NCBI GenBank assembly: GCA_028693815.1
Contig: JAQUUP010000007.1
Coordinates: 4,921-68,920 of the forward strand
Length of the DNA: 64,000 bases
Source: Candidatus Omnitrophota bacterium
GTDB taxonomy: Bacteria; Omnitrophota; Gorgyraeia; Zapsychrales; Aceulaceae
Direction of reading: 5' to 3'
The notes below the pieces were generated by a model. It did not search any database. It was not told where the DNA came from and saw only the letters and a program-made list of their open reading frames with translations. This document shows positions 12,567 to 63,926 of the stretch, one piece after another. The translations under genes were made by a program, and so were the position numbers. Position 1 is the stretch's first letter. Each line of letters begins with the position of its first letter.

Positions 12567-13651
12567 AGAATGTATGTGTTTCGCTAAAAGAGAATAGTTA
12601 TAAAATTATTGTTGGACATAATATTTTATCTAAAATTGGTAATCAAATAAAATTTCTTAAAATTGGAGATGATGCCGTCATTATCACCAATCCTTTAATT
12701 AAAAAACTTTATGGTAACGCATTAAGTAAAAGTTTAAAGAAATCTAAAATATCTGCTAAATTCTTTTGCGTCCCTGATACAGAAAAAAGTAAATCTCAAA
12801 AAGTTGCGTTTGACGTTATTCAAAAAATTGCTCAATATGATGTGAAGAAAAAGATTTTTGTTATTGCGTTTGGAGGCGGTGTTGTTGGCGATTTAGCTGG
12901 GTTTGTGGCTGCTTTATATAAAAGAGGCATCCCGTTTATTCAAGTGCCAACCACATTTTTAGCGCAAGTTGATTCAGCCATTGGCGGCAAGGTAGCTATT
13001 GATTTGCCGGCTGGAAAAAATTTGGTAGGTGCGTTCTATCAACCTAAGTTAGTTTTTAGCGATGTTGCTGTTCTCAAAACTTTGAGCCAGAGGCAAATCA
13101 GAAATGGTTTGGCTGAGTCTGTTAAGTATGGAGTTATCAAGGACAAGGATTTGTTTGTCTATATTAGTTGTAATTATAAGAAATTGTTATCGCTTGATTT
13201 GCCTGCGTTGAGCCATGTTGTTTTAAAATGCAGCCATATTAAAGCAGATGTTGTTTCTAGAGATGAGAAAGAAAAAAAAGGTATTCGAACTATTCTAAAT
13301 TTTGGGCATACGATTGGTCATGCTATTGAAACAGTTAGCTCTTATGATCGGTATCAGCACGGAGAAGCAGTCAGCATTGGGATGCGCGCAGCAGGCTCTA
13401 TTGCCTGCGCTATGGGCTTGTTTAGCCAAAAAGATTTAGATGCCCTTGAAAGTCTTTTGTCTCAAATTGGGTTACCTGAAAAAATAAAGAATGTTAATGT
13501 TTCTAGCCTGATGAAGATTATGGTGCATGACAAAAAGAATATTTCCAAAAAGAATCGATTCGTGCTTCCGCAGAAAATAGGGCAGGTTTGTGTTTTAGAG
13601 GGGGTTTCTTTGCCCCTGATTCAGAAAACAGTCAAGTTTTATTGCGCTTAA
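12563..13651 (+). CDS. aroB: 3-dehydroquinate synthase
   Basis: Gly-rich NAD loop GGGVVGDLAGF, KTLSQRQIRNGLAE and HTIGHAIE metal-binding motifs. Start trimmed to the Met of MKNVCVSL inside the longer track ORF. Confidence 0.85.
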   Translation: MKNVCVSLKENSYKIIVGHNILSKIGNQIKFLKIGDDAVIITNPLIKKLYGNALSKSLKKSKISAKFFCVPDTEKSKSQKVAFDVIQKIAQYDVKKKIFVIAFGGGVVGDLAGFVAALYKRGIPFIQVPTTFLAQVDSAIGGKVAIDLPAGKNLVGAFYQPKLVFSDVAVLKTLSQRQIRNGLAESVKYGVIKDKDLFVYISCNYKKLLSLDLPALSHVVLKCSHIKADVVSRDEKEKKGIRTILNFGHTIGHAIETVSSYDRYQHGEAVSIGMRAAGSIACAMGLFSQKDLDALESLLSQIGLPEKIKNVNVSSLMKIMVHDKKNISKKNRFVLPQKIGQVCVLEGVSLPLIQKTVKFYCA

Positions 13652-14100
13652 GGATTAAGCTTCAAGACAAACACTTCTCCTTGATTAAAGATTTTCACAC
13701 TATCTTCCGTAATAGCCAAGACTTTTTTGTCACCAATGGCGTCACCCTGCTGAACAATTTTAGCGTTGATTAGTGCTGTATAATGATCGCCTGATTTCAT
13801 GATACCATTTAAATTAAGACCAGAAGAAGAGATTATTTTTTTTTCTGATGTTGTATTTTGATTGGCTGGAGGTAAGATATTTGTATGCTCAATGAACGTA
13901 GGCTTTGAAGCATGGTTAGTGGAAAGAAGAATTGTGCTTAAAACAACAGCACATCCAAAAAAACCACCAACAATAACGAGCATGGCTATTTTGACCCAAG
14001 GATCTTTTTTGAAAGAATCTTTTTGGGCCGGATCACCGCTATGCTTCTGCCTTTCTAAGACAGATTGTGTTTTCTTAAGGGCTTCATTTATGATACTCAT
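13648..14100 (-). CDS. GspB-like membrane protein (partner of ExeA-type ATPase)
   Basis: 150 aa, N-terminal TM; sits directly downstream (on the - strand) of the ExeA-like ATPase with a 4-bp gap. Confidence 0.45.
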   Translation of the reverse strand: MSIINEALKKTQSVLERQKHSGDPAQKDSFKKDPWVKIAMLVIVGGFFGCAVVLSTILLSTNHASKPTFIEHTNILPPANQNTTSEKKIISSSGLNLNGIMKSGDHYTALINAKIVQQGDAIGDKKVLAITEDSVKIFNQGEVFVLKLNP

Positions 14101-14103
14101 ATT

Positions 14104-14904
14104 TTATCCTAGTTCTTCAATACATTTTTTGATAATGTCAAAATCAATCGAAAAAGTCTCTGCGACAAATCCAGCTAAAAGTGCTCTGTCGCAAAGAATA
14201 TTGATTAAGCGAGGTGTTCCGGTTGAATATTGATAAATCTCATTAATGGCTTCATCGGTAAATTGGATTTTTTGATTGGATCCAGCAATTTTGAGTCGAT
14301 GAATTACATATTCTTTAAGTTCTGTTTTTTCAAGTGGCTTAATGTGGCAACGAATAGTAATACGCTGATTAAGTTGGCGCAACGATGTAAGCTTTAGTTT
14401 TTGACACAATTCGGGTTGGCCAACAAGGATAATTTGCAAAAGTTTTTCTTTTTCTGTTTCTAGGTTAGACAAAAGACGGATTTGTTCTAACTGAGATTCT
14501 TTAAGGTTTTGTGACTCATCAATAATCAGAACGACATTGTTGCCGTGGCTTGTCTCGTTAAGCAAAAAATCGTTTAAAGCGTTGATAATTGCTGATTTGT
14601 TCTTGCTTTTAATTTCGATGCCGAAATCTTTTATAACCATTTGCAGAAGTTGAAGTTCGGAGAAGTTTGGATAAAGAATAAATGCAGTTTTTGTTTTTTG
14701 GTCAAGGGTGTTTAGAAGTGCTCGACAAAGCGTTGTCTTACCGGTTCCGATTTCTCCTGTGATGAGAATAATGCCTTTACGCTGTTGAATGCCATAAGTT
14801 AAATGGGAAAATGCTTCGGAGTGATGTGCGCTGGAAAAAAAGAATGAGGGATCGGAAGTAACGTTAAAAGGATTTTCTTTAAGTCCATAAAATTGTTTAT
14901 ACAT
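14104..14904 (-). CDS. ExeA/GspA-like AAA ATPase
   Basis: Canonical N-terminus MYKQFYGLKENPF (ExeA family) and Walker A GEIGTGKTT. Start trimmed to this Met inside the longer track ORF. Confidence 0.75.
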   Translation of the reverse strand: MYKQFYGLKENPFNVTSDPSFFFSSAHHSEAFSHLTYGIQQRKGIILITGEIGTGKTTLCRALLNTLDQKTKTAFILYPNFSELQLLQMVIKDFGIEIKSKNKSAIINALNDFLLNETSHGNNVVLIIDESQNLKESQLEQIRLLSNLETEKEKLLQIILVGQPELCQKLKLTSLRQLNQRITIRCHIKPLEKTELKEYVIHRLKIAGSNQKIQFTDEAINEIYQYSTGTPRLINILCDRALLAGFVAETFSIDFDIIKKCIEELG

Positions 14905-15033
14905 GGGATAAATTATATCATGTGAAGAGGTTTTGTAAAGGTTGTAAATACATGAAAAAAAAGTGGTTGTCGCTCTAAGAAAATATGCTATACTTTTAAT
15001 AGCCACGGAACCTTAACCTTAAGGAGAAGTGGC

Positions 15034-31140: not shown

Positions 31141-31265
31141 ATAAGACTTGTATTTTTTTAGGGAGTTCCTTGCTTTACTTGAGGAATCTAGAAAATAGAT
31201 TATTTTCTGGATTAATTCGCCCATAGTTTTACATTCTTTGATATTCTGAAGAGCTAAGGCTCAAA

Positions 31266-31357
31266 GGAAACCCCACGTCGCTAAAAAGCGCTCCTGGGAT
31301 AAATTCGGGCAGATAATTTACGATCGTTAACGCTCCGTAAATTATGCCCTCATTTAA
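31266..31357. repeat. structured intergenic repeat, copy A (upstream of cupin gene)
   Basis: GGAAACCCCACGTCGCTAAAAAGCGCTCCTGGGATAAATTC, then a 10-bp perfect inverted repeat ATAATTTACG...CGTAAATTAT, then CTCATTTAAGG. Confidence 0.7.
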
Positions 31358-39878: not shown

Positions 39879-39896
39879 AAAGATTAATTTAAAATA

Positions 39897-39993
39897 GAGG
39901 ATACTCCACGTCGCCACAGAAGGCTCCTGGAGTAAGTTCAACTGACCAGCTTACGTTCCTCGCGAAGCTCGTCCATAAACTGGAGTTTCATTT
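39897..39993. repeat. structured intergenic repeat, copy B (abuts aspS start codon)
   Basis: GAGGATACTCCACGTCGCC...GGCTCCTGGAGTAAGTTCAACT, then hairpin AGCTT...AAGCT, then ACTGGAGTTTCATTT | ATG. Confidence 0.7.
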
Positions 39994-41373
39994 ATGTTAA
40001 GAACACACACGTGCGGCGAATTAAATAAAACGCACAAAGATCAAGAGGTTACGCTTTGCGGCTGGGTGCATCGAAGACGTGATCATGGAAAACTTATTTT
40101 TATTGATGTTCGAGATCGTTACGGTTTTACGCAGGTTGTTTTTGTTCCATCGGTTAGCAAAGATGCTCATGAAAAAGCACAACAGCTTGGCCCAGAGTTT
40201 GTTGTTAAAATTACAGGCACAGTTAATGTTCGTCCAGAAAAGAATGTTAATGCAGATATCCCAACAGGGACGATTGAGCTTTGTGCGACTGGTCTTGAGA
40301 TTTTAAACGCATCAGAGGTGCCTGTTTTTGAAATTGATGATGAGGGCGATGTTTCAGAAGAATTACGTCTTGCTTATCGTTATCTGGATTTAAGGCGCCA
40401 AAAACTTCAGACGTCTTTAAGTTTGCGTCACAAGCTTTGCTCGACGATTCGAAATTTTCTAGATAATGAAAGCTTTATTGAGATTGAAACGCCTGTTTTG
40501 ACTAAGTCCACGCCTGAGGGAGCAAGGGATTTCTTAGTACCTTCTCGATTAAATCCAGGTGAGTTTTTTGCATTGCCGCAGTCACCGCAGTTGTTTAAGC
40601 AAATCTTGATGGTTTCTGGAATGGATAAATATTATCAGATCGTCAAATGTTTTCGCGATGAAGATCTTCGAGCTGATCGCCAGCCGGAATTTACTCAGTT
40701 GGATATGGAGATGTCTTTTGTTGAACAAGATGATATTTTTGATTTGACGGAAAGAATGTTTAAAAAAGTTTTTAAAGAAGTTAAAGGGATTGATATCCCG
40801 ACACCTTTTCCTCGAATGACACATGCCGAGGCGATGGAAAAATACAAAAGCGATAAGCCAGACATAAGAAAAGAGGGTCAAGAATTTGCATTTCTTTGGG
40901 TTGTTGATTTCCCATTATTTAAGTATAATGATCAAGACAAGCGTTGGGAAAGCGAGCATCATCCGTTTACGTCATTTTATGAAGAAGACGAAAAACTTTT
41001 AGATGGAAAAGATTTAAACAAGATTCGCTCACGCTCGTATGACCTTGTTTTAAACGGAAATGAGATTGGAAGCGGATCTGTTCGTATTCATAAACAAGAT
41101 GTACAAAAAAAGATATTTGATATAATAGGGTTTGATGAGCAAGAAGCTGAAAAGCGTTTTGGGTTTTTGTTGAAAGCGTTTAAATATGGAGCGCCGCCAC
41201 ATGCGGGCGTTGCTTATGGGATTGATCGGCTGGTTGCACTTTTAACGGGTCTAGATTCAATTCGAGATACTATTGCTTTTCCAAAGACACAAAAAGGAAA
41301 TTGCCTTTTGACAGATGCGCCGACACCTATTGATACAAAACAGCTTAAAGATTTAGGATTAAAGGAATTATAA
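39994..41373 (+). CDS. aspS: aspartate--tRNA ligase, short archaeal/eukaryal-type (no GAD insertion)
   Basis: 459 aa; N-terminal OB fold, class II motifs (FRDEDLRADRQPEFTQLD; GAPPHAG), no bacterial insertion domain. Confidence 0.88.
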   Translation: MLRTHTCGELNKTHKDQEVTLCGWVHRRRDHGKLIFIDVRDRYGFTQVVFVPSVSKDAHEKAQQLGPEFVVKITGTVNVRPEKNVNADIPTGTIELCATGLEILNASEVPVFEIDDEGDVSEELRLAYRYLDLRRQKLQTSLSLRHKLCSTIRNFLDNESFIEIETPVLTKSTPEGARDFLVPSRLNPGEFFALPQSPQLFKQILMVSGMDKYYQIVKCFRDEDLRADRQPEFTQLDMEMSFVEQDDIFDLTERMFKKVFKEVKGIDIPTPFPRMTHAEAMEKYKSDKPDIRKEGQEFAFLWVVDFPLFKYNDQDKRWESEHHPFTSFYEEDEKLLDGKDLNKIRSRSYDLVLNGNEIGSGSVRIHKQDVQKKIFDIIGFDEQEAEKRFGFLLKAFKYGAPPHAGVAYGIDRLVALLTGLDSIRDTIAFPKTQKGNCLLTDAPTPIDTKQLKDLGLKEL

Positions 41374-41395
41374 TTTAGGAGTCCTTGATTTGTCC

Positions 41396-41609
41396 CTTTA
41401 GGGCGCGGGATTCGCAGGATAATCTAAGATAAAATTGGTAGTTTCGAAAATAAAGTTTTCGGAATAAATTCGCACAGATTTTTTGCGAGACAATATTTAT
41501 TAATTTCATTAACCCCGCTTGAGCGGGGTAAATTCGCAGACGGCCTTTGGCCTATGATTTATGTCACAAATGTGACATAAATCATCTGCTCATTTAAAGG
41601 AGGAGAAAG
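41396..41609. repeat. structured intergenic repeat region, copy F
   Basis: GGAATAAATTCGCACAG..., 7-bp hairpin ACCCCGC-ttga-GCGGGGT followed by TAAATTCGCAG, GGCCtttGGCC, a 12-bp perfect palindrome GATTTATGTCAC-aaa-GTGACATAAATC (41556-41583), then CTCATTTAAAGGAGG. Confidence 0.6.
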
Positions 41610-48110: not shown

Positions 48111-49010
48111 ATGATTACGGGAACAAATATGGAGATTTTTATGCCGCTGATTCAACCAATCATTCGACCTCCATCTGAAGCCAACAGTTTACTTTTACAG
48201 GTGACGGTTGGATGTTCTTCCAATACATGTACCTTTTGCGGCGCGTACGCATCAAAGCAATTTGGTATGATGGAATTTTCAGATATAGCCCAAGATATAG
48301 AGCAGGCTGCTCGTTATTATCCTGAAACAAGAAAGGTATTCTTGCTCGACGGAGATGCTTTAGCTGTAAGCAATGAGAAGCTCGTTCCTATTTTAAGGCT
48401 TATCAATGAAAGTTTTCCAAAATTAAGCCGTATTGCAAGCTATGCGAATGGTTACAACATGACAAAAAGAACGCATGAAGAATTAAAAGAATTGCGCGAT
48501 AACAATTTAAGCTTGATTTATATGGGGCTTGAAAGCGGCAGTCAAAAAGTTTTAGATTTGTGCAAAAAACGCGCAACAGTTCAAGAGATGATAAAAGCCG
48601 TACGAGTTTCAGATGATGCAGGCATAAAATCATCGATTATTGTTCTTTTAGGGTTGGGTGGAAAAAAGTATTCTGAAATCCACACAAAAGAAACTGCAGC
48701 GGCCCTTAATAAAATGCAGCCAAGATATTTATCTTTTCTTTCTCTTATGTTGATAGAGGGCACTCCGTTGTGCAAGCAAGCAGAGGCTGGTGAGCTTGAA
48801 GAGCTTGATTCAGAAGGATTTCTAAAAGAGGCTTATGATATTGTTAGAGGGCTTGATTTAAATAAAACAATATTTCGCTCAAACCATGCTTCAAATTATT
48901 TGCCTTTAGAGGGGCGTTTACCAAAAGATAAGCAAAAGTTGCTCGACGCGTTTAAGGCAGGAATTAATGGCAACACATCTTTAAGGAGTGAGATTTCTAG
49001 AGGATTGTAG
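48111..49010 (+). CDS. radical SAM domain protein (non-canonical CX4CX2C cluster motif)
   Basis: VGCSSNTCTFCGAY, GLESGSQKVLD; 299 aa; divergent from the helicase gene. Confidence 0.65.
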   Translation: MITGTNMEIFMPLIQPIIRPPSEANSLLLQVTVGCSSNTCTFCGAYASKQFGMMEFSDIAQDIEQAARYYPETRKVFLLDGDALAVSNEKLVPILRLINESFPKLSRIASYANGYNMTKRTHEELKELRDNNLSLIYMGLESGSQKVLDLCKKRATVQEMIKAVRVSDDAGIKSSIIVLLGLGGKKYSEIHTKETAAALNKMQPRYLSFLSLMLIEGTPLCKQAEAGELEELDSEGFLKEAYDIVRGLDLNKTIFRSNHASNYLPLEGRLPKDKQKLLDAFKAGINGNTSLRSEISRGL

Positions 49011-49052: not shown

Positions 49053-49081
49053 TTGACCTTATTAGGCGTGTACTCTATAAT
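49053..49081 (+). promoter_or_regulatory. near-consensus sigma70 promoter upstream of dtd
   Basis: TTGACC, 17 bp, TATAAT (49076-49081); about 120 nt upstream of the dtd ATG, with a possible short uORF (49102-). Confidence 0.55.
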
Positions 49082-49200
49082 TTAATAATATAAATGATCG
49101 CATGTTTTTATGGAGCAACGACGACATAAAACATATGCGAGAATTTATCCCGAGATATTCTAAGAAAGAATATATCGGGATTATATCTGAAAGCTTATTT

Positions 49201-49647
49201 ATGAAAATTGTTATTCAAAGAGTTAAGCAAGCGAGTGTTACGGTTTCTCAGAAGATTATTGGCAAAATTGATCAGGGAATTTTGGTTTTGTTGGCTATTG
49301 CCAAAGACGATGATGCAAGTGATATTGAATATTTGGTTAATAAGCTTGTGGATTTAAGAATTTTTGAAGATCAAGACGGCAAAATGAATGCTTCTGTTTT
49401 AGATATTAAAGGTGAATTCTTAGTTGTATCGCAGTTCACACTTTTAGCGGATTGTAAAAAAGGCAGAAGGCCTTCTTTTGATAAGGCGGCTGATCCAAAA
49501 AAGGCCAAAGAGCTCTACGAGCAATTTGTTGAAGTTTTGCGCAAAAAAGGATGCAAGGTCGAAACCGGAGAGTTTGGCGCGACGATGGATGTCGCGCTTG
49601 TTAATGATGGGCCCGTGACGTTTACGCTAGAGAGCGCAGAAAATTAA
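49201..49647 (+). CDS. dtd: D-aminoacyl-tRNA deacylase
   Basis: 149 aa, [13 protein letters not shown]..., SQFTL motif, C-terminal [10 protein letters not shown]. Confidence 0.88.
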
Positions 49648-49975
49648 TGGAAACCCCACGTCGCTTAAAAAGCGCTCCTGGGGTAAATTCAACCTAAGAC
49701 TTGCGTCGCATTTTATAAAATGATGATGCTCCGCAAGTCAAAGGATTCATTTATGATGGATGTCGCACTTGTCAATGATGGGCCTGTGACGTTCACGCTA
49801 GAGAGCGCAGAAAATTAATGGAAACCCCACGTCGCTTAAAAAGCGCTCCTGGGGTAAATTCAACCTAAGACTTGTGTCGCATTTTATAAAATGATGATGC
49901 TCCGCAAGTCAAAGGATTCATTTATGATGGATGTCGCGCTTGTTAACGATGTGCCTGTGACGCTGATTATAGAGA
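49584..49975. repeat. 171-bp tandem duplication (2 full + 1 partial copy) of the dtd 3' end plus an intergenic repeat element
   Basis: Unit starts at 49584, 49755 and 49926 (GATGGATGTCGC...); copies about 95% identical; the third copy diverges after about 45 bp. Confidence 0.9.
49753..49818 (+). pseudogene. duplicated dtd C-terminal fragment ([21 protein letters not shown])
   Basis: In-frame copy of the last 20 codons of dtd preceded by ATG-ATG and the element's RBS. A further degraded copy lies at 49924-49995. Confidence 0.6.
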
Positions 49976-50088
49976 GTAAGGGTGTTGGTATCTAGTATCT
50001 AGAAAGGGAAAAAGCGGCAGGGAACGGGTGATAGGCATTTTTGTTATTATTAGACAAGAAATTGAGAAGAAGAAAAAGGAGGGGTACA

Positions 50089-50397
50089 ATGGGCAAAAAA
50101 GAACAATTAGTATCGGCGATAATGGGAGGTTTTGCGATTGCAACTTTTATTTCTTTTGTTGAATTTACTATTTATAAGGATGATTCTGTTAATTTCTTAG
50201 TAGCTAAATTTCTTTTTTATTTTGCATCTTTCATTATAGTAATGTATTTCTCTGTATCTCAGCAAAAGAAACGAATGGATAAGTGGAAAGAAAACCACTA
50301 TTCAAAATTAAATCAAGAAGAATTCAGGTGTTTTAAGTGCAAAGCTCTTATTAATCAAGATGACGAAAAATGTCCTCAGTGTGGATGGAAATGGTAA
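50089..50397 (+). CDS. small membrane protein with C-terminal zinc ribbon
   Basis: Two TM helices, then CFKC...CPQC; AAGGAGG RBS before MGKKEQ. Confidence 0.5.
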   Translation: MGKKEQLVSAIMGGFAIATFISFVEFTIYKDDSVNFLVAKFLFYFASFIIVMYFSVSQQKKRMDKWKENHYSKLNQEEFRCFKCKALINQDDEKCPQCGWKW

Positions 50398-50430
50398 AGA
50401 ATTCCAGTGACCCGTCTAGGGTAATTTAAA

Positions 50431-50706
50431 ATGAAGAAAATTATAATAGCGCTTATTATTTTTAGTTTTTGTGGATGCGGTCTGGTGCCTGCTTATAGAC
50501 GAGCTCAGCCTGATTTTCAAAAAGCTGCAAATATGATGCTTTATGGTGGCTCAAAAAATATGGTTCGATCAGATTGGGGAGAACCCGATAAGAAGGAAAT
50601 TCTTGAAGATGGCACAGAAGCATGGACGTATTATAATCGTCAAGATGGTAGAACTTTTATTTTTTATTTTAATAAAAAAGCAAGGCTTGTAAGAGCTAAA
50701 ATTTAA
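50431..50706 (+). CDS. small lipoprotein, BamE/SmpA-OmlA-like
   Basis: Lipobox FCGC; about 70-aa mature domain with MVRSDWGEPDKKEI...EAWTY, like SmpA_OmlA. Confidence 0.4.
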   Translation: MKKIIIALIIFSFCGCGLVPAYRRAQPDFQKAANMMLYGGSKNMVRSDWGEPDKKEILEDGTEAWTYYNRQDGRTFIFYFNKKARLVRAKI

Positions 50707-50791
50707 TAAGGCGGCTGGTGCTTTTTAAGGTTTTCTTAATTAGGTACGTGTCCCCGGAACTATGCTCAGGACAGAAAGAAGAGGATAACAG

Positions 50792-51754
50792 ATGAAGAAA
50801 TTTCTACTTGCCACAGGTATTGTGTTGATTGTTTTTGCTGTCTTGATGTTTTTAATTGACGCTTCTTCAATGTGCATGATATCTGTTATTTGCATGATCA
50901 TTGGTGGATGTATGTTGGGTTATAGCGATTGGCTTGCCATTAATGATATTAGAAAAGAAGTCAGTGCTAGTTCAGTATTTTGTTTCTTATTAGCTCTAAC
51001 AACAGCGGCATTGATTGCTTTATCAACGCGTATCGGAATTATCGTCGAATTAGTGACTCCTTTTCTGGTCCTAGCTTCGCTGGTGACTGGTGGTATTTTC
51101 TTTTTTTTCTACAAGAAAAAAGGTGGGCTGCTGTGCTTTAAGTCTGTAGCTATAACAGGAGTATCACTTAGTGTATTCATGTCAATGATGGTTATTCTTG
51201 GCATTATTGATAATTTTTCGAATTTTCCAGAAAGTTATAACGATCGAGCTTCACAATATAAGTATTGGAAAGCCAGTGAATATGTTTCACGAGACAAATG
51301 GGATGCTGCGATCAAAGAACTTGATGAGGCGATAGCCTTGTCACCCGACGATGGCCGCTATTATGAAAAACGGGGTTACGCTTATCTTAGCAAGGGTGAT
51401 GATGATAAAGCCATGTCTGATTATAAAATGATGGAGCTCTATTCTAATGAAAATTCTAGAGGTTTAAGCTATGGAGCTCGTGGTGATGTATATTTGAAAA
51501 GAGGCGAATATGATAAGGCAATAACGGATTATAGCAAGGCCATTGAATTGTCAAAGCACTTTTTGGAGCCTTACTATCAAGGACGCGCTAGAGCATTCTT
51601 TGAGAAGAATGAATACGACAAAGCATGGGAGGATCTTCAAAAGCGAACCCTGTATTTTGAACCGACTCAAGAGGAAGATTTTGTAAAAAAACTTAAAGAA
51701 TGGAATAAGAATAAAACAATTCGCGCGAGTTATCCTGGGCTTGATGGACACTAG
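50792..51754 (+). CDS. membrane protein with C-terminal TPR repeats
   Basis: 4-5 TM helices, then TPR motifs (AIALSPDDGRYYEKRGYAYLSKGDDDKAMSDY...). Confidence 0.55.
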   Translation: MKKFLLATGIVLIVFAVLMFLIDASSMCMISVICMIIGGCMLGYSDWLAINDIRKEVSASSVFCFLLALTTAALIALSTRIGIIVELVTPFLVLASLVTGGIFFFFYKKKGGLLCFKSVAITGVSLSVFMSMMVILGIIDNFSNFPESYNDRASQYKYWKASEYVSRDKWDAAIKELDEAIALSPDDGRYYEKRGYAYLSKGDDDKAMSDYKMMELYSNENSRGLSYGARGDVYLKRGEYDKAITDYSKAIELSKHFLEPYYQGRARAFFEKNEYDKAWEDLQKRTLYFEPTQEEDFVKKLKEWNKNKTIRASYPGLDGH

Positions 51755-51828
51755 ATTTTGGGAGATGTCCCTAATTAAGGATGCGGTGGCGGAGGGTTTA
51801 TCCTGTGCTCAAATAATTATCTTAACTT

Positions 51829-52860
51829 ATGGTTAAAAAACTTTTGAAATCAATTCAACTTAAAGTTTCTCTCGCCGGCAATTATCCGGCGCTGGCTGCG
51901 CGCGTGAAAGGTGAGCTGAGTAGTCTTGAGGTTCTTGTTAAACGAGAGACCATTAAGTCTTATTGGAATATTGGGAAATTCATTCATAGTCATTTGCTGG
52001 AAAATAAGGAAAGAGCCCAATACGGAAATCTATTGTACGAACGGCTTTCTAGAGATGTAGGCAGGGATAGTTCTACTTTAAGGCGGACAGTAAAGTTTTA
52101 TCTTGCGTATCCTCGAATTCAGGCCTCGAGGCCTGAATTGAATTGGACACAATATAAGCAATTAATTACGATTAAAGATAAAGACGAGCGAAAACAGTTA
52201 GAAGAGCAGTTTGTTAAAAAGGGATTTGACGCGCGTAAATCCCAGGCGTTCTTGAATTTCAAAAAAACACAATTAGCTGCCAAAGACGCGCCTGACAAGC
52301 CGGTTGTGCAATTATCATTTGCTCGAGGAAAACTTTTGACGTACAGCTTTATTGAAAGTAAGGAGTCGGATGTGGGATTGCTCCTTGATTTAGGTTTTCG
52401 AATTCGCAGGAACTTCGAAGAGTTAAAGGGCACAAAATTTGTTAAAGGTGATTGCGTTAGGGTTTTAAACAAAAACTCTTTCGTCAAAGCAGACGTTAAA
52501 AAAGAAGAACTTTTTACATATTTCGCGACCATTGAAAAAATCATCGACGGCGATACGTTGACAGTTTTGCTCGACTTAGGGATGGGGTTGTTTGTTCAGC
52601 AGAAATTGAGATTACGAGGAATTGATTGCCCGGAGATGGATACCGATGATGGAGTGAGGGCAAAAAAGTTTGTGCAGACCAAGCTCGGTAAGCTTGATTT
52701 TATTATTGTCAAAACTTACAAAGATTCAAGCGACAAGTACGATCGGTATTTGGCAGATATTTTTTATTTGGTTGATGAGCGCGACCCTGAAAGGGTCGCG
52801 CAAGAAGGCGCTTATCTTAATCAGGTGCTTTTGGACGAACGCTTGGCGTGCGTGTATTGA
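51829..52860 (+). CDS. DUF1016(YhcG)-N domain fused to staphylococcal-nuclease (SNase/thermonuclease) domain
   Basis: N-terminus YWNIGKFI...YGNLLYERLSRDVGRDSSTLRRTVKFYLAYP (DUF1016_N pattern); C-terminus IDGDTLTV...LRLRGIDCPE...DRYLADIF (SNase motifs). Confidence 0.6.
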   Translation: MVKKLLKSIQLKVSLAGNYPALAARVKGELSSLEVLVKRETIKSYWNIGKFIHSHLLENKERAQYGNLLYERLSRDVGRDSSTLRRTVKFYLAYPRIQASRPELNWTQYKQLITIKDKDERKQLEEQFVKKGFDARKSQAFLNFKKTQLAAKDAPDKPVVQLSFARGKLLTYSFIESKESDVGLLLDLGFRIRRNFEELKGTKFVKGDCVRVLNKNSFVKADVKKEELFTYFATIEKIIDGDTLTVLLDLGMGLFVQQKLRLRGIDCPEMDTDDGVRAKKFVQTKLGKLDFIIVKTYKDSSDKYDRYLADIFYLVDERDPERVAQEGAYLNQVLLDERLACVY

Positions 52861-52929
52861 AGGAGGATTTATAAAAAATGATTTTTTATCTATAGACAAG
52901 AGAGGGATAGAATTTTAAGATAAAAAAAT

Positions 52930-53685
52930 ATGAAAACGATTTATTTAAAATTATGGATGACATTGTTTGCTTGCCTTGTTTTTGGTGTTCAGGGTGTTAG
53001 TGCCCAAGACGGTAAGGGAGACTTGATTGCTGGTGGAACGGTTGTGATTTTAGGTCAAAGAATATCGCCACCTTATAAAATTGAAATAAGAAATAACGAG
53101 ACATGGATCAACGACATTCTCGCTGAACCTCTTGTGAACAAAAGGGCTCGAGTCCTGCCAGTTGTCACAGATGATATACGAAAGAAGCATGATTTTATTT
53201 CTCGTCTTACGGACGACTATTTGTATTTTTATAAACGATTTGGACGAGAGAAATTTCAAAAAAAACTTTTAGAAAAATATAAAAAAGATTCTTCTGCGTC
53301 ACAGTTAAATTTTTATAAAGAAGATTTAGAGGTGATTTTTAAAGATGGAGAAAAAGAGTTTTTGATGATGGGCCATTCGAGATCTCTTATTGATCGAAAT
53401 ATTAGTCGTGAAGAATGGGCAAGAACGGTTAAGGAAGGTAATCAAAATGCCCGAAGAGAAAGCATTAAAATGCATGAGCGGCTTCTTAAGCGGGGTGGGA
53501 TGTTGATTTATGATTATGGAAGTATGTCTGCTATGCCGCCTGCTATTGCTCAAAACATTATTGCAGGTTTAAAAAATTTAAAAGAAAATTCTTGGTCTTT
53601 GGAACAAACTCGAGAAGAGCTTAAACGCTTAGGAATTTCGGATCGTGTTTTTGAGCATATTCAAGAAAATTGTGCCTCTTGGTAA
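52930..53685 (+). CDS. secreted hypothetical protein
   Basis: Signal peptide (FGVQGVSAQ); 251 aa, charged, no recognisable family. Confidence 0.45.
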   Translation: MKTIYLKLWMTLFACLVFGVQGVSAQDGKGDLIAGGTVVILGQRISPPYKIEIRNNETWINDILAEPLVNKRARVLPVVTDDIRKKHDFISRLTDDYLYFYKRFGREKFQKKLLEKYKKDSSASQLNFYKEDLEVIFKDGEKEFLMMGHSRSLIDRNISREEWARTVKEGNQNARRESIKMHERLLKRGGMLIYDYGSMSAMPPAIAQNIIAGLKNLKENSWSLEQTREELKRLGISDRVFEHIQENCASW

Positions 53686-53818
53686 TTGTGGGGCTTTGCT
53701 GAAAATTTCTGGGCGAAGAGAATAGGCTAGATGTTTACGAATGTGATGCAAAAGGCATAATAACAAAGAATTGTTCGCTAGATTTTTATTAAACTTATTA
53801 CTTAAAAATTTACTTATG

Positions 53819-56825: not shown

Positions 56826-57684
56826 AGATATAGTAGATAAAAAAACTTCTGGTGAAAAGATCACGATGCTTACGGCTTACGATTATCCGATGGCTAGGAT
56901 CATTGATCAGGCGGGTATCGATATTATTTTGGTCGGCGATTCTGTTGCCAATGTTGTTTTAGGATTAGATTCCACAAAAGCGATGACCATGGATCAGATG
57001 ATTTATCATGCCAGTGCTGTTCGAAGAGGGGCCCCAAATGCATTGGTTGTTGGCGACATGCCGTTTGAGTCATATCAAGTTGATAGTGTTAGGGCTGCTT
57101 GTAATGCAAAGCGTTTTGTTAATGAAGCAGGCTGTGATGCTATTAAATTAGAATGGTTTGATCAGTGCTTAGACGTGGCGAAAGAAATTATAAAGTCAGA
57201 AGTTTCTGTGATGGGGCACATCGGCTTAACGCCGCAAACAGCCGATCGCTTAGGGGGTTTTAAAGTTCAAGGAAAAGATGCTGAGTCGGCAAAACATTTA
57301 ATCGATCAAGCTCAGGCGTTGGAGCAAGCAGGGTGTTTTAGTTTAGTTTTAGAATGTATTCCAGATAAAATTGCTCAGATGATCACAGAAAAGTTGAGTA
57401 TTCCAACAATTGGCATTGGCGCAGGGCCTCATTGCGATGGGCAGGTTTTGGTGACACATGACATTTTAGGATTTTTTGATCGTTTCAAACCAAAATTTGT
57501 TAAGCAATACATGGATTTAAGCTCGATGATTACTGGCGCGGTTACGCTTTACCGTAATGAAGTTTTATTGAGTCAGTTTCCAAGCAAAGAGCAGAGTTTC
57601 ATTATAAAGGATGAGGAGATGGATAAGTTAAGACGAAACCCCGCGTCGCTTAAAAACGCTCCTGGGGTAAATTCGCACGAATAA
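56806..57684 (+). CDS. panB: 3-methyl-2-oxobutanoate hydroxymethyltransferase with C-terminal extension read from repeat element
   Basis: KITMLTAYDYPMARI, GHIGLTPQ motifs; the last 15 codons (...RRNPASLKNAPGVNSHE*) are translated from repeat copy D. Confidence 0.85.
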   Translation: MKKQTLKDIVDKKTSGEKITMLTAYDYPMARIIDQAGIDIILVGDSVANVVLGLDSTKAMTMDQMIYHASAVRRGAPNALVVGDMPFESYQVDSVRAACNAKRFVNEAGCDAIKLEWFDQCLDVAKEIIKSEVSVMGHIGLTPQTADRLGGFKVQGKDAESAKHLIDQAQALEQAGCFSLVLECIPDKIAQMITEKLSIPTIGIGAGPHCDGQVLVTHDILGFFDRFKPKFVKQYMDLSSMITGAVTLYRNEVLLSQFPSKEQSFIIKDEEMDKLRRNPASLKNAPGVNSHE

Positions 57685-57727
57685 CTTTGCACTCCTTGTA
57701 GTCGTGCAAGCTATGTGCTCATTTAAA
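57635..57727. repeat. structured intergenic repeat, copy D (overlaps panB 3' end)
   Basis: GAAACCCCGCGTCGCTTAAAAACGCTCCTGGGGTAAATTCGCACGA..., hairpin GCACGA...TCGTGC, then GTGCTCATTTAAAA. Confidence 0.7.
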
Positions 57728-57730
57728 AAA

Positions 57731-57930
57731 GTTCTGATTCGCCCCGCTAGGCCGCGGGGCTTACAGGGGAATCCTCAGTTCGTCGATTCCTTGAGGATTA
57801 ATTCGCCTGACAGATTTACAGTCACTGATGCTCTGTAAATCTGAGGCTCATTAAAATTCGCGCAGGCTGACTTGACGTCTCGCCAAAGCTCGACGTAAGT
57901 CAGGCGCTTATTATAGGAGTTTCATTTAAA
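57731..57930. repeat. inverted-repeat-rich repeat-family member, copy D2
   Basis: GCCCCGC-taggcc-GCGGGGC; AATCCTCA...TGAGGATT followed by AATTCGCC; 11-bp perfect IR CAGATTTACAG...CTGTAAATCTG; CATTAAAATTCGCGC; CTGACTTGACGTC...GACGTAAGTCAG; ends ATAGGAGTTTCATTTAAAC. Confidence 0.6.
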
Positions 57931-57938
57931 CAAAAATT

Positions 57939-58040
57939 GAGGATACTCCGCGTCGCCCAAAAAAGAATGAAGGGCTCCTGGAGTAAATTCAACTAACAAT
58001 TTACGAGCCGCTTTCGCGCTCGTAAATAGGAGTTTCATTT
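57939..58040. repeat. structured intergenic repeat, copy E (abuts start codon of 58041 gene)
   Basis: GAGGATACTCCGCGTCGCCC...GGGCTCCTGGAGTAAATTCAACT, 9-bp IR TTTACGAGC...GCTCGTAAA, then TAGGAGTTTCATTT | ATG. Confidence 0.7.
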
Positions 58041-58352
58041 ATGAAAAAATGTCCGTTTTGTGCAGAAGAAATTCAAGATGAAGCAATCAAGTGTCGGTAT
58101 TGTAACGAGCTTTTAAATAAAGAAGAGAAGACAGCCTGGTATTTAAAACCATCGATTTTAGTGCTTGGTTTTTTGACGGTTGGTCCGCTTATGTTGCCTT
58201 TGGTTTGGATTAATCCGAAATATGATCAGAAAAAGAAATTTATTATTACGATTGTTATTCTTTTGATCACATATTTTGCTTTTAAAATAATGGCGCACTC
58301 TGTTCAACAGCTTCAAGAGCATTATAAGGTTCTTTTTGATATGCTTGGATAG
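58041..58352 (+). CDS. small membrane protein with N-terminal zinc ribbon
   Basis: CPFC...CRYC, then two TM helices. Confidence 0.55.
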
Positions 58353-61214: not shown

Positions 61215-63191
61215 ATGGCAGGCAAAACAAGTAAGTATGTTTATTTTTTTGGTGGTGGAAAAGCAGAGGGCAAAGCTTCAATGAAGGAGCTTTTTGGTGG
61301 AAAAGGTGCTAATTTAGCGGAGATGTCAAGCATTGGCGTTCCAGTGCCAGCAGGTTTTACGATTACGACAGAAGTTTGCGCATATTATGATAAGAATAAT
61401 AAAAAGAAACCAGCAGGGTTAGATAAAGAAATTGATGCAAATATCACTAAGATTGAAAAAGTGATGGGTGCAAAATTTGGAGATAAGAATAATCCTCTTT
61501 TGGTTTCTGTTCGAAGTGGCGCTGCCGTTTCTATGCCGGGTATGATGAATACAGTTTTGAATCTTGGTATCAATGATGATGCAGTTGAAGGTCTAGCTAA
61601 GAAAACAAATAATGAGCGCATGGCTTGGGATTCTTATAGACGTTTCATTAATATGTTTGGCGATGTTTGCATGGGTGTTGACCATGAGCATTTTGAGCAT
61701 GAGCTAACGCGTATTAAGAAAAAGTATAACCGAAAATTAGATTGCGAATTAACAACTCAAGAATTAAAAGAAGTTGTTGATGCTTATAAAGAAGTATACA
61801 GAAAGAGTGTTGGAAAGGATTTCCCAACAGCCGCACGCGAGCAACTTTCTTATGCGATTGATGCTGTTTTAGGTTCATGGAATATTCCAAGAGCGGTTGC
61901 TTATAGAAATATTAATAAGCTTTTTGGGCTTAAAGGAACAGCAGTTAATGTTCAGTCCATGGTTTATGGAAATATGGGCGATAATTCTGGAACAGGTGTT
62001 GCGTTTACACGTAATCCTGCTGATGGAACAAACAAATTCTTTGGTGAGTATTTGATTAATGCCCAAGGGGAAGACGTTGTGGCTGGTATTCGTACCCCTG
62101 ATCCGATTTCAACTTTGAAAACGAAAATGCCAAAGATTTATAAAGAGCTTGATACGATTCGATTAAAGCTTGAGCGACATTATCGTGATATGCAAGACGT
62201 TGAGTTTACGATTCAAGAAGGCAAGCTTTATATGCTTCAGACGAGAACCGGAAAAAGAACTGGTTTAGCGGCTGTTAAGATTGCTGTTGATATGGTTAAA
62301 GAGAAATTGATTAAGCCAGAAGAGGGATTGATGAGAGTTGAAGGCGATCATTTGAATCAACTTCTTTTCCCAATTCTTGATCCTAAGGCAAAGCTTGAGG
62401 CTATTTCTGCAAAACGCGTTTTGGCCAGAGGTTTGCCAGCAGGTCCAGGAGCATCAAACGGACAAATTGTTTTTACGGCTGATGATGCTGTGAAGTGGGC
62501 TGAAAATGGCAAAAAAGTTATTTTGGTTCGAAAAGAAACTTCTCCAGAAGATGTTTCTGGTATGTGGGCTGCTCAAGCAATTTTGACATCAACAGGAGGA
62601 ATGACTTCGCATGCAGCTGTTGTTGCTCGAGGTTGGGGCAAATGTTGTGTGGTTGGTTGTGCGGCTTTGGATATTGACTATAAAACAAAGACAATCAAGG
62701 TTGATGGAAAAGTTTTAGAAGAAGGCGCCGAGGTTTCTATCGATGGTTCAACAGGAGAAATTGTTTTAGGACATGTTGAGACATCTTCTTCGCCAGTTGT
62801 TTCAGGGATTATTGACAAAAATAAAGCTGCACTAAAACATCCAATTTGCCAGATTTTCTTGGAAGTGATGAAATGGGCAGATAAAGCACGAGAAATCAAG
62901 GTTCGCACCAATGCGGATTCTCCAAAAGATGCACAAAATGCACGTGCGTTTGGCGCAGAAGGTATTGGCCTTTGCCGAACAGAGCATATGTTTTTTGAGG
63001 GCGATCGTATTTGGGCTATTCGAGAAATGATTCTTGCCAACGATGTCGCTGGTCGAGAAGCAGCTCTTAAGAAACTTCTTCCATATCAAAGAAAAGATTT
63101 TGAAGGTATTTTTAAGGCTATGGATGGATTACCTGTTACAGTGCGTCTTTTAGACCCACCTTTACATGAGTTCTTGCCTCACGATGCCTAA
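61215..63191 (+). CDS. ppdK: pyruvate, phosphate dikinase, N-terminal 658 codons, ending at an in-frame TAA
   Basis: PEP-utilizer/PPDK motifs (GGMTSHAAVVARGWGKCCVVGC; ...RLLDPPLHEFLPHDA*). Confidence 0.85.
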   Translation: MAGKTSKYVYFFGGGKAEGKASMKELFGGKGANLAEMSSIGVPVPAGFTITTEVCAYYDKNNKKKPAGLDKEIDANITKIEKVMGAKFGDKNNPLLVSVRSGAAVSMPGMMNTVLNLGINDDAVEGLAKKTNNERMAWDSYRRFINMFGDVCMGVDHEHFEHELTRIKKKYNRKLDCELTTQELKEVVDAYKEVYRKSVGKDFPTAAREQLSYAIDAVLGSWNIPRAVAYRNINKLFGLKGTAVNVQSMVYGNMGDNSGTGVAFTRNPADGTNKFFGEYLINAQGEDVVAGIRTPDPISTLKTKMPKIYKELDTIRLKLERHYRDMQDVEFTIQEGKLYMLQTRTGKRTGLAAVKIAVDMVKEKLIKPEEGLMRVEGDHLNQLLFPILDPKAKLEAISAKRVLARGLPAGPGASNGQIVFTADDAVKWAENGKKVILVRKETSPEDVSGMWAAQAILTSTGGMTSHAAVVARGWGKCCVVGCAALDIDYKTKTIKVDGKVLEEGAEVSIDGSTGEIVLGHVETSSSPVVSGIIDKNKAALKHPICQIFLEVMKWADKAREIKVRTNADSPKDAQNARAFGAEGIGLCRTEHMFFEGDRIWAIREMILANDVAGREAALKKLLPYQRKDFEGIFKAMDGLPVTVRLLDPPLHEFLPHDA

Positions 63192-63203
63192 GGGCAAGAA
63201 GAG

Positions 63204-63926
63204 ATGGCAAAGCGTTTAAACATAACACCAGAAGCGGTTAAAGCAAAAGTAGATTCTCTTCACGAGATGAATCCTATGTTTGGTCATCGTGGATGCCGAT
63301 TGTCGATTACTTATCCTGAAATTTGCAAAATGCAGGTAACAGCGATTATGGAAGCGGCATGCAACATGGCTAAGAAAGAAATTAAAGTTCTTCCAGAGAT
63401 CATGATTCCTTTGATTGGAACAAAGGCAGAATATGATATTCTAGAAGCGATTTCTCGTAATACGGCCGAAGAGATTATCAAAGCTAAAGGTGTTAAGGTT
63501 AATTATCTTGTTGGAACCATGATGGAAATTCCTCGTGCAACACTTGTTGCCGACAAGGTTGCTGAAAAAGCAGAGTTTTTCTCATTTGGTACCAATGATC
63601 TTACACAGATGACGTTTGGCTATAGTCGTGATGACGTAGCAACATTTTTACCTGAATATATTGATAAGAAAATTGTTAGAGATGATCCGTTTGCTTCTAT
63701 TGATCAGGAAGGTGTAGGTGAACTTGTTATCACAGCGGTGAAACGTGGTCGATCGACACGCAAGAATTTAAAGTGTGGTGTTTGCGGCGAGCATGGTGGG
63801 GACCCAGCGAGTGTTAAGTTTTTTGTTAGAGCCGGTCTTAATTATGTTAGTTGTTCACCCTATCGTGTGCCAATTGCACGTTTAGCAGCAGGACAAGCAG
63901 CGCTTGAAGCTAAAAAGAAAAAATAA
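63204..63926 (+). CDS. ppdK: pyruvate, phosphate dikinase, C-terminal PEP/pyruvate-binding domain (same frame as upstream part)
   Basis: Continues in the same reading frame: MAKRLNITPEAVKAKVDSLHEMNPMFGHRGCRLSITYPEI...; TIM-barrel motifs GTNDLTQ, CGEHGGDP. Confidence 0.85.
   Translation: MAKRLNITPEAVKAKVDSLHEMNPMFGHRGCRLSITYPEICKMQVTAIMEAACNMAKKEIKVLPEIMIPLIGTKAEYDILEAISRNTAEEIIKAKGVKVNYLVGTMMEIPRATLVADKVAEKAEFFSFGTNDLTQMTFGYSRDDVATFLPEYIDKKIVRDDPFASIDQEGVGELVITAVKRGRSTRKNLKCGVCGEHGGDPASVKFFVRAGLNYVSCSPYRVPIARLAAGQAALEAKKKK

Follow-up and report, generated by a model that had tools for sequence, protein, structure and literature searches.

A 171-bp tandem array at the 3' end of dtd in a Candidatus Omnitrophota bacterium and its possible origin by tail replacement

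In a metagenome-assembled genome (MAG) of a Candidatus Omnitrophota bacterium (GCA_028693815.1), the 3' end of dtd, the gene for D-aminoacyl-tRNA deacylase, is followed by further copies of itself, which alternate with a non-coding hairpin element. How can a housekeeping gene acquire several ends in a row and stay intact, and do the surplus ends have a role of their own? The locus was analyzed within a stretch of 64,000 nucleotides (contig JAQUUP010000007.1, positions 4,921 to 68,920), which is referred to as the window and to which all coordinates refer. An earlier note, made from the letters of the window and a list of its open reading frames (ORFs), had described the array and proposed an origin for it; its claims are taken up below where the respective results are given.

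Structure of the array and its presence in the reads

Tandem Repeats Finder reported one long-period array at 49584-49962 (period 171, 2.2 copies, 95% matches, no indels, score 709), the sole array of a period > 16 within the window. A repeat search of the window gave 97% identity between 49584-49754 and 49755-49925, and found the first 51 nt of the unit in three in-register copies (100, 92 and 84%) with spacings of 171 and 171. Thus, the 171-bp tandem repeat of the earlier note, composed of the dtd 3' end and an intergenic repeat element, was directly recovered. Each unit consists of 66 nt of the dtd 3' end and a 105-nt two-hairpin element, which is called E in the following. Units 1 and 2 have five mismatches, at 49596, 49602, 49614, 49623 and 49704. 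The two 42-nt halves of the non-coding part E occur exactly twice each in this form, with 0 occurrences expected in shuffles.

The gene dtd itself (49201..49647, plus strand, as are all parts of the array) is intact and encodes 148 AA. It matches Pfam PF02580 (Tyr_Deacylase) at positions 2-144 of 144 with 7.8e-62, and the protein is 100% identical to a protein labelled by NCBI as belonging to a Candidatus Omnitrophica MAG (P0001). Its last part, tail T1 (49582..49647), is the functional 3' end of dtd and consists of a 39-nt 5' part, which is common to all tails, and an ending TTTACGCTAGAGAGCGCAGAAAATTAA, which is called type A. It is followed by E1 (49648..49752) with hairpin 1 at 49649-49690 and the stem of hairpin 2 at 49698-49739, identified by exact-pattern matches and covariance model R1 (68.5 bits); the end of this element, AAAGGATTCATTT, adjoins an ATG. 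The RNA fold predicted for E1 has -40.1 kcal/mol (z = -4.66). Tail T2 (49753..49818) forms a mini-ORF and is followed by E2 (49819..49923), which differs from E1 at a single position (49875 T vs 49704 C), by which a G-C pair in the stem of hairpin 2 becomes G-U. The third tail, T3, starts with the common 39 nt at 49924..49962, which carry two private changes according to the sequence comparison, one of them a G to V exchange in the motif GPVT. It continues at 49963..49995 with another ending, type B, CTGATTATAGAGAGTAAGGGTGTTGGTATCTAG (LIIESKGVGI and stop), recognized by its match to the Dtd profile. Hence, the order at the locus is dtd body, 39-nt part with A end and E, 39-nt part with A end and E, 39-nt part with B end, variable genes and tatD. 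A tblastn search found no further copy of the dtd tail in the window, including the tatD side.

The presence of the array in the reads was assessed using Logan contigs, in which, by construction, every 31-mer is present once only (PMC12424806). Two contigs of this assembly, made separately from SRR22315505 with k = 31, match the window with 100% identity; one ends at 49653, and the other one starts at 49908. The stop at 49653 is located exactly 30 nt past the last T1-specific base (49623), and the restart at 49908 exactly 30 nt ahead of the first base separating T3 from T2 (49938), i.e., the assembly breaks at exactly k-1 from copy-specific single nucleotide polymorphisms (SNPs). These are the break points which the array predicts; therefore, both repeat branches are present in the reads. 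Copies 1 and 3 share an identical run of at most 21 bases, so that the assembly graph would be linear without copy 2. At the junction of E and T2, the sequence of the element is found 15 nt from a T2-specific base, and therefore the k-mers of this junction exist in the reads. In addition, the distances between the SNPs at 49623, 49704, 49767 and 49875 are 63-108 nt (63-81 nt inside a unit), short enough for phasing with ordinary reads. The array is genuine chromosomal DNA, and the one figure that may be too low is the count of identical units. The suspicion of an assembly artefact, which the earlier note had wanted checked, is largely dispelled as regards the existence of the array, based on the k = 31 branch points, but not as regards the exact copy number. 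When Dtd, both mini-ORFs and the downstream gene were looked up by exact match, one Logan sample only was returned, which contains the same strain, and a single metagenome scan with the tail-to-element junction gave only a chance match within a GC-rich coding sequence.

Two kinds of dtd ending and their possible history

The three tails are equally distant from each other in their first 39 nt, with four differences each for T1-T2, T1-T3 and T2-T3. Every tail has two private changes, at tail positions 2 and 33 in T1, 15 and 21 in T2, and 24 and 29 in T3, of which position 29 causes the G to V exchange in GPVT. From nt 40 onwards, T3 cannot be aligned with T1 and T2, which differ from each other at 1 of 27 nt, plus 1 of 105 nt in E. 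In 119 Dtd homologues, the consensus following GPVT is [FVIL]-I-[IL]-E-S-[RK], and LIIESK of T3 fits this profile at 6/6 positions after GPVT. When all 127,966 hexapeptides of the six-frame translation of the window were scored against the Dtd C-terminal profile, LIIESK achieved the top score, and FTLESA of T1 and T2 was within the top 21; the latter contains two rare residues, T and A, each present in 3/120 homologues. One homologue (P0037) ends with GPVTLILESKVAGV directly before its stop codon, which equals the ending of T3 in length and resembles it in sequence. The earlier note had described two full copies and a decaying third one. The two full copies stand, but decay does not describe the third, which is equidistant over 39 nt and then has a canonical Dtd end. 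Judged by these profiles, the locus holds two different, authentic dtd 3' ends: type A, present twice and each time followed by E, and type B, present once and disabled. Two genuine endings require at least one recombination between different dtd 3' ends, one of which must stem from another allele or lineage; slippage inside a single gene copy with subsequent neutral decay cannot yield them.

As a separate observation, Tandem Repeats Finder also listed a 7-nt tandem repeat, GTATCTA GTATCTA, at 49988-50002, which overlaps the stop codon of T3. It may have arisen by a small slippage or mark the edge of the variable region as a footprint.

T1 is the tail used by the functional enzyme. Both downstream frames, 49753-49818 (21 AA) and 49924-49995 (23 AA), open with ATG-ATG in the frame of the dtd tail, and the lead-in AAAGGA, 7 nt, ATG is common to them. 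Accordingly, the earlier note was right in reading both mini-ORFs at these positions and in placing the ATG-ATG codons in frame behind a Shine-Dalgarno-like AAAGGA. T1 reads ACG-ATG where T2 and T3 read ATG-ATG; since Dtd of the relatives reads AMMDV at this point, the ATGATG of T2 and T3 is taken as the ancestral dtd codons. From the second codon on, the T2 peptide is the same as that of T1, and the nucleotide differences in this part are confined to four synonymous third-codon positions. The arrangement GGA(G)-TTTCATTT-ATG also serves aspS and a zinc-ribbon gene. T2 is probably an intact by-product, which could be translated because E has the arrangement of Shine-Dalgarno sequence and ATG that aspS uses; in the predicted fold, the Shine-Dalgarno sequence of E is paired inside hairpin 2. 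The ready-made translation signal postulated in the earlier note is therefore present as a sequence, shared with aspS and the zinc-ribbon gene, but copy 3 behind it has the G to V exchange in the catalytic motif. With the Gly of its Gly-cisPro motif replaced, T3 is predicted to be dead. The mini-ORFs are presumably without function. Among 80 other dtd loci, no homologous mini-ORF or second dtd tail was detected, apart from one scaffold artefact: the apparent second tail in a Syntrophaceae MAG (locus L045, 1948-2168) was rejected due to a run of N with identical sequence on either side.

We favor, at a probability of about 0.55, that the array is the scar of a recombination at the 3' end of dtd in which the tail was replaced, and not a dedicated system. 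The order and the mechanism of the events, as well as which of the two endings is foreign, are inferred. A single join is proposed because both E-to-tail junctions are identical (TCATTT directly followed by ATGATGGAT) and because the 3' end of E adjoins start ATGs elsewhere. This illegitimate join, with ATG as microhomology, would have connected a junction of E and a start codon to the conserved Met-Met codons of dtd, resulting in tail-E-tail. In one version, DNA with an A end and E would have entered by homology in dtd on the left, displacing a native B end; in the other version, the B end would have hitch-hiked at the edge of imported downstream genes. The second A unit may then have been added when the repeated 39-42 nt or the copies of E underwent unequal crossover or slipped during replication. 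The earlier note had assumed unequal crossover or slippage between elements for the array as a whole; this fails for the first event, the left boundary of which is inside dtd, where no element is present.

Several observations weigh against tail replacement. The look-ups and the metagenome scan revealed no second strain or species with the locus, which leaves polarity and order conjectural, and the join rests on a microhomology of 3 nt only. Six of the eight private changes fall in the 39-nt part (binomial p = 0.013), and A end and E of units 1 and 2 differ at only 2/132 nt. A single recent duplication does not predict such clustered changes; gene conversion, constraint on E or allelic exchange would be needed. 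Furthermore, all four differences between T1 and T2 in the shared peptide are synonymous, which hints that T2 might once have been under protein-level selection, unlike a pure by-product. Overall, the pattern of changes in the tails and in E fits gene conversion of A end and E, a structural constraint on E, an exchange of dtd between alleles or a degree of selection on T2, whereby the counts are small.

Four other explanations and one bolder extension were weighed against this history. A purely intragenomic origin, in which slippage or unequal crossover triplicated tail and element and the last copy has been decaying by neutral mutation and/or partial deletion, accounts for copies which lie head-to-tail and in register and fits the usual finding that copies at the edge of an array are the most diverged ones. 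Strong hairpins such as those of E also promote replication slippage. Yet, T3 is not more diverged than T1 and T2 over 39 nt and then switches abruptly, and its end is the best Dtd-like hexapeptide of the window, being nearer to the consensus exactly where T1 and T2 are atypical, although decay should not converge. Since, in addition, the left boundary is inside dtd and not in the element, this origin is considered unlikely. The least credible explanation is an assembly artefact, in which a repeat was collapsed or expanded or strain variants were joined in tandem. The source is a short-read MAG, the differences between T1 and T2 resemble allelic, synonymous variation, and the locus is known from one sample only; however, the E-to-T2 junction k-mers must exist in the reads, the branch points of the independent k = 31 assembly are exactly those expected from the array, and SNPs at distances of 63-108 nt can be phased by ordinary reads, leaving only the number of identical units open to error.

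A mobile gene-tail cassette would integrate site-specifically, as a 171-bp unit or as an island, at the 3' end of dtd and bring a replacement tail, with the displaced tails being stacked. Such an incoming tail would restore an intact dtd and leave the displaced tail downstream, as found here; the identical E-to-tail junctions, the variability of the region 3' of dtd among relatives and the synonymous differences between T1 and T2, as for tails evolved in different hosts, agree with it. Nevertheless, Pfam scans of 47 of the ORFs of ≥ 90 AA in the window, which make up most of its gene-like ORFs, revealed no integrase, transposase, reverse transcriptase or Cas domain, and in particular no integrase or recombinase in 49648-53800. 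The direct repeats enclose only 105 bp instead of a gene-bearing region, neither a tail copy nor an element is present at the tatD side, and the other copies of E have no flanking gene-tail or target-site duplication, which renders a cassette quite improbable. Slightly less probable still is a selected function, in which the T2 peptide with the Gly-cisPro segment is translated and useful, or the doubled hairpins regulate or stabilize the RNA of dtd or of the downstream genes. In its favor, T2 has 0 nonsynonymous and 4 synonymous differences to T1 (P ~0.03 if neutral, according to our own estimate with a synonymous fraction of 0.23-0.33), the arrangement of Shine-Dalgarno sequence and ATG is identical to that of real genes, the sole difference between E1 and E2 retains the base pair as G-U, and 8/9 modules are co-oriented with transcription. 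These numbers are very small, however, and the disabling G to V exchange in T3 means that not all tails are maintained; a 21-AA fragment of a dimer-interface strand would hardly fold or act alone, the 80 other dtd loci contain neither a homologous mini-ORF nor a second tail beyond the scaffold artefact, and the Shine-Dalgarno sequence is paired in hairpin 2 of the predicted fold. The bolder extension, to which we give very little credence, is that E would be a new orientation-specific intercistronic hairpin element, which captures the 3' end of an upstream gene and re-inserts before ATGs. This would create 171-bp cassettes swapping protein C-termini, and the T2 cassette might express a free 21-AA Gly-cisPro peptide. 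It stays compatible with the data because the junctions are identical (TCATTT followed by ATG), the end of panB is rewritten by a copy of E, and T1 and T2 differ only synonymously.

The family of element E and the genomic surroundings

E is composed of hairpin 1, whose conserved core is CGTCGC...GCTCCTGGRGTAAATTC, of hairpin 2 and of a terminal GGA(G)TTTCATTT. Six copies in the window, all on the plus strand, oriented with transcription and starting at 31262, 39895, 49645, 49816, 57630 and 57937, were detected by a covariance model of hairpin 1 with 63-70 bits; the next best hit had 13.8 bits. The label "repeat element" used in the earlier note is thereby justified. The same model had no match in 134,616 bases of relatives. 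For the hairpin-2 module, the pattern AATTC...TCATTTA had eight overlapping matches in the window, corresponding to seven distinct modules, and no match in 886,751 bases of the dtd loci of other genomes. The stems of hairpin 2 vary in sequence between the copies in a compensating manner and still fold strongly (z down to -6.8), and several loops carry TCGC...GCTC. TAAATTC and TCATTTA are the junction words of the family. Eight of the nine modules matching a pattern or the covariance model are co-oriented with transcription.

Family member B (31262..31356, plus strand, hairpins 1 and 2, covariance model 68.1 bits) is located upstream of a cupin gene. Member G (39895..40014, plus strand, 67.6 bits) is found between hisS and aspS, where the spacer of Candidatus Aceula lacicola comprises 27 nt without this member. 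Diverged modules are present between aspS and the LysM gene (41380..41596, plus strand, by pattern; 41531-41596 folds with z = -6.78). One module is reversed and resides in the leader of dtd (49091..49145, minus strand, pattern AATTC...TCATTTA, z = -2.41). A cluster of 4-5 modules (labelled C, D, E and F) was recognized between panB and the zinc-ribbon gene by covariance model, pattern and folds (57630..58040, plus strand), with more diverged modules also at 57728-57925; its module F adjoins the ATG of the zinc-ribbon gene. Copies F and G end with GGAGTTTCATTT right before the ATG of the zinc-ribbon gene (58026-58043) and of aspS (39990-40017), respectively, and supply the Shine-Dalgarno sequence. 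In both cases, this sequence is part of the 3' arm of hairpin 2 and base-paired according to the predicted fold, which could provide translational control. The frame of panB runs into copy C (57620-57684), by which the last panB codons are replaced and the C-terminus becomes DKLRRNPASLKNAPGVNSHE, followed by a stop codon, while the panB product of relatives ends with DKLKGGQN or SKLKDKQER. In relatives, the sites occupied here by copies of E are stop/start junctions which overlap or are short (hisS/aspS, panB/zinc ribbon).

No terminal inverted repeats were found in E, as GGAAACCCC at its 5' end is not complementary to GGATTCATTT at its 3' end, and target-site duplications were absent from the flanks of copies B, C, F and G, also when compared to the empty sites of relatives. 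Upstream of hairpin 1, conservation does not reach further than ~12 nt, and none of the other E copies is flanked by a gene-tail duplication. A search against Rfam gave only a tRNA above the gathering score in the window and, for 49560-50100, nothing better than an E-value of 2.9. The pattern of hairpin 1 was absent from viral contigs, and no candidate for a protein with E-encoded peptides appeared among 5.8 billion. In summary, E behaves like a lineage-specific modular intergenic repeat of the type of repetitive extragenic palindromic sequences (REP), bacterial interspersed mosaic elements (BIME) or BOX elements. Two side observations concern this family. The stop codon of dtd overlaps an ATG (TAATG), which opens a 16-codon frame through hairpin 1 (49645-49697), the second half of which (APGVNS) is identical in the panB extension. 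In the aspS-LysM spacer of A. lacicola (locus L087, 3590-3700), a short GATTC-GGCGGTAAGCCGC-...-TTCATTTA is found where the window has 2-3 modules. This stretch may be a proto-module; if so, the frame of ATTC, hairpin and TCATTTA predates hairpin 1.

The nearest species representative is Candidatus Aceula lacicola (Omnitrophota), with a Dtd identity of 78%. The gene order hisS-aspS-LysM-PhoH-HD-YbeY-RecO-helicase (minus strand)-dtd-tatD-...-panB-zinc ribbon is kept with relatives. In A. lacicola, the stop codon of dtd overlaps the start of tatD, and another relative has a gene for a 936-AA TPR protein between the two. Here, the array and about 4 kb of other genes precede tatD (start at 53817). 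These genes (50089..53685, plus strand) encode a zinc-ribbon membrane protein, a putative lipoprotein, a TPR protein, a DUF1016_N-SNase nuclease and a 251-AA protein, and are not found at this position in relatives; the same applies to a radical SAM gene upstream of dtd (48111-49010). Gene gain and loss in the genus seem to have a hot spot at the flanks of dtd. A consensus scan indicated a promoter-like site upstream of dtd (TTGACC-17-TATAAT, 49053..49081, plus strand) and no terminator-like site between dtd and the array. Elsewhere in the window, the gene for pyruvate phosphate dikinase (61215-63926 and beyond) contains an in-frame TAA at 63189-63191, where A. lacicola has Lys (HEAKG, against HDA, stop and G in the window); possible causes are a nonsense mutation, a sequencing error and recoding. 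A pair of genes on the minus strand, of which the window has few, is located at 13648-15006 and encodes an AAA_22 ATPase (300 AA) and a 150-AA protein without Pfam match.

Significance and comparison with known systems

Most likely, the locus was shaped by ordinary recombination next to a hairpin repeat specific to the lineage, and no new biological system is indicated. Nonetheless, the locus offers a clean natural example of a housekeeping gene whose C-terminal coding end has been exchanged with the gene still intact. A dispersed hairpin repeat with a ribosome-binding site can make a displaced or duplicated end a potentially translatable mini-ORF. For annotators, such arrays are easily mistaken for CRISPR-like periodicity or for small genes, and the case is relevant for micro-rearrangements driven by repeats in the Omnitrophota, which have been little studied. 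The E family, which is lineage-specific, lacks an Rfam match and provides start signals for aspS and others, is a more promising lead than the array.

Regarding known classes, the array is a tandem segmental duplication, being head-to-tail with a constant period of 171 and an identity far above chance, and present in the DNA. It is not a CRISPR array, as the earlier note had already stated, since such an array would have repeats of about 23-50 nt and unique spacers of comparable size: the whole 171-nt unit is repeated, including the would-be spacer, only 2.2-2.3 units are present, and the scanned ORFs contain no Cas domain. Miniature inverted-repeat transposable elements and transposition in general were dismissed owing to the missing terminal inverted repeats and target-site duplications. 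A diversity-generating retroelement was rejected as well, since no reverse transcriptase domain was found and the copies differ by T/C, G/A and G/T at mixed positions, not at adenines only.

Integrative elements that target the 3' ends of genes for tRNA, tmRNA or proteins reportedly bring a replacement end of their own, which leads to an att duplication (attributed to Williams 2002). In agreement with this, dtd is full length with the A end, so that the gene is intact by means of a substitute 3' end, and a second genuine end (B) is kept downstream as a direct repeat. The class was nevertheless rejected: there is no integrase, and the tails do not flank an island but are adjacent, 105 bp apart, enclosing a non-coding element in a unit which is itself tandemly duplicated. 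Homology-facilitated illegitimate recombination is said to have been demonstrated experimentally in naturally transformable bacteria by de Vries and Wackernagel 2002 and by Prudhomme et al. 2002. As in that process, one end of the proposed join is homologous, the other one lies at a microhomology of a few bases, and related, non-identical anchor copies are found side by side; unlike there, the event is deduced here from its product.

In enterobacteria, tandem duplications joined at REP/BIME, with kilobases to hundreds of kilobases between two REP copies, were reportedly described by Shyamala, Schneider and Ames 1990. The array shares with them a dispersed, hairpin-forming intergenic repeat at the join of a head-to-tail duplication, which is free to expand or contract by homologous exchange. 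In contrast, the unit here has 171 bp, and the element provides just one of the two sides of the join, the other being located inside a coding sequence. With its dispersed intergenic copies, stable imperfect hairpins and modular clusters, E itself resembles REP/BIME and BOX; a REP-associated tyrosine transposase (RAYT) was not found among the scanned ORFs of the 64-kb window. The BOX elements of pneumococci and the Rickettsia palindromic elements are lineage-specific modular hairpin repeats of intergenic regions, some copies of which enter reading frames and alter protein ends. Like these, E is modular, hairpin-forming and lineage-specific, and alters the C-terminus of the panB product. It differs from them in having a core, a loop and junction words of its own, in lacking terminal inverted repeats and an Rfam match, in being mostly directed with transcription, and in that several of its copies give the next gene its Shine-Dalgarno sequence.

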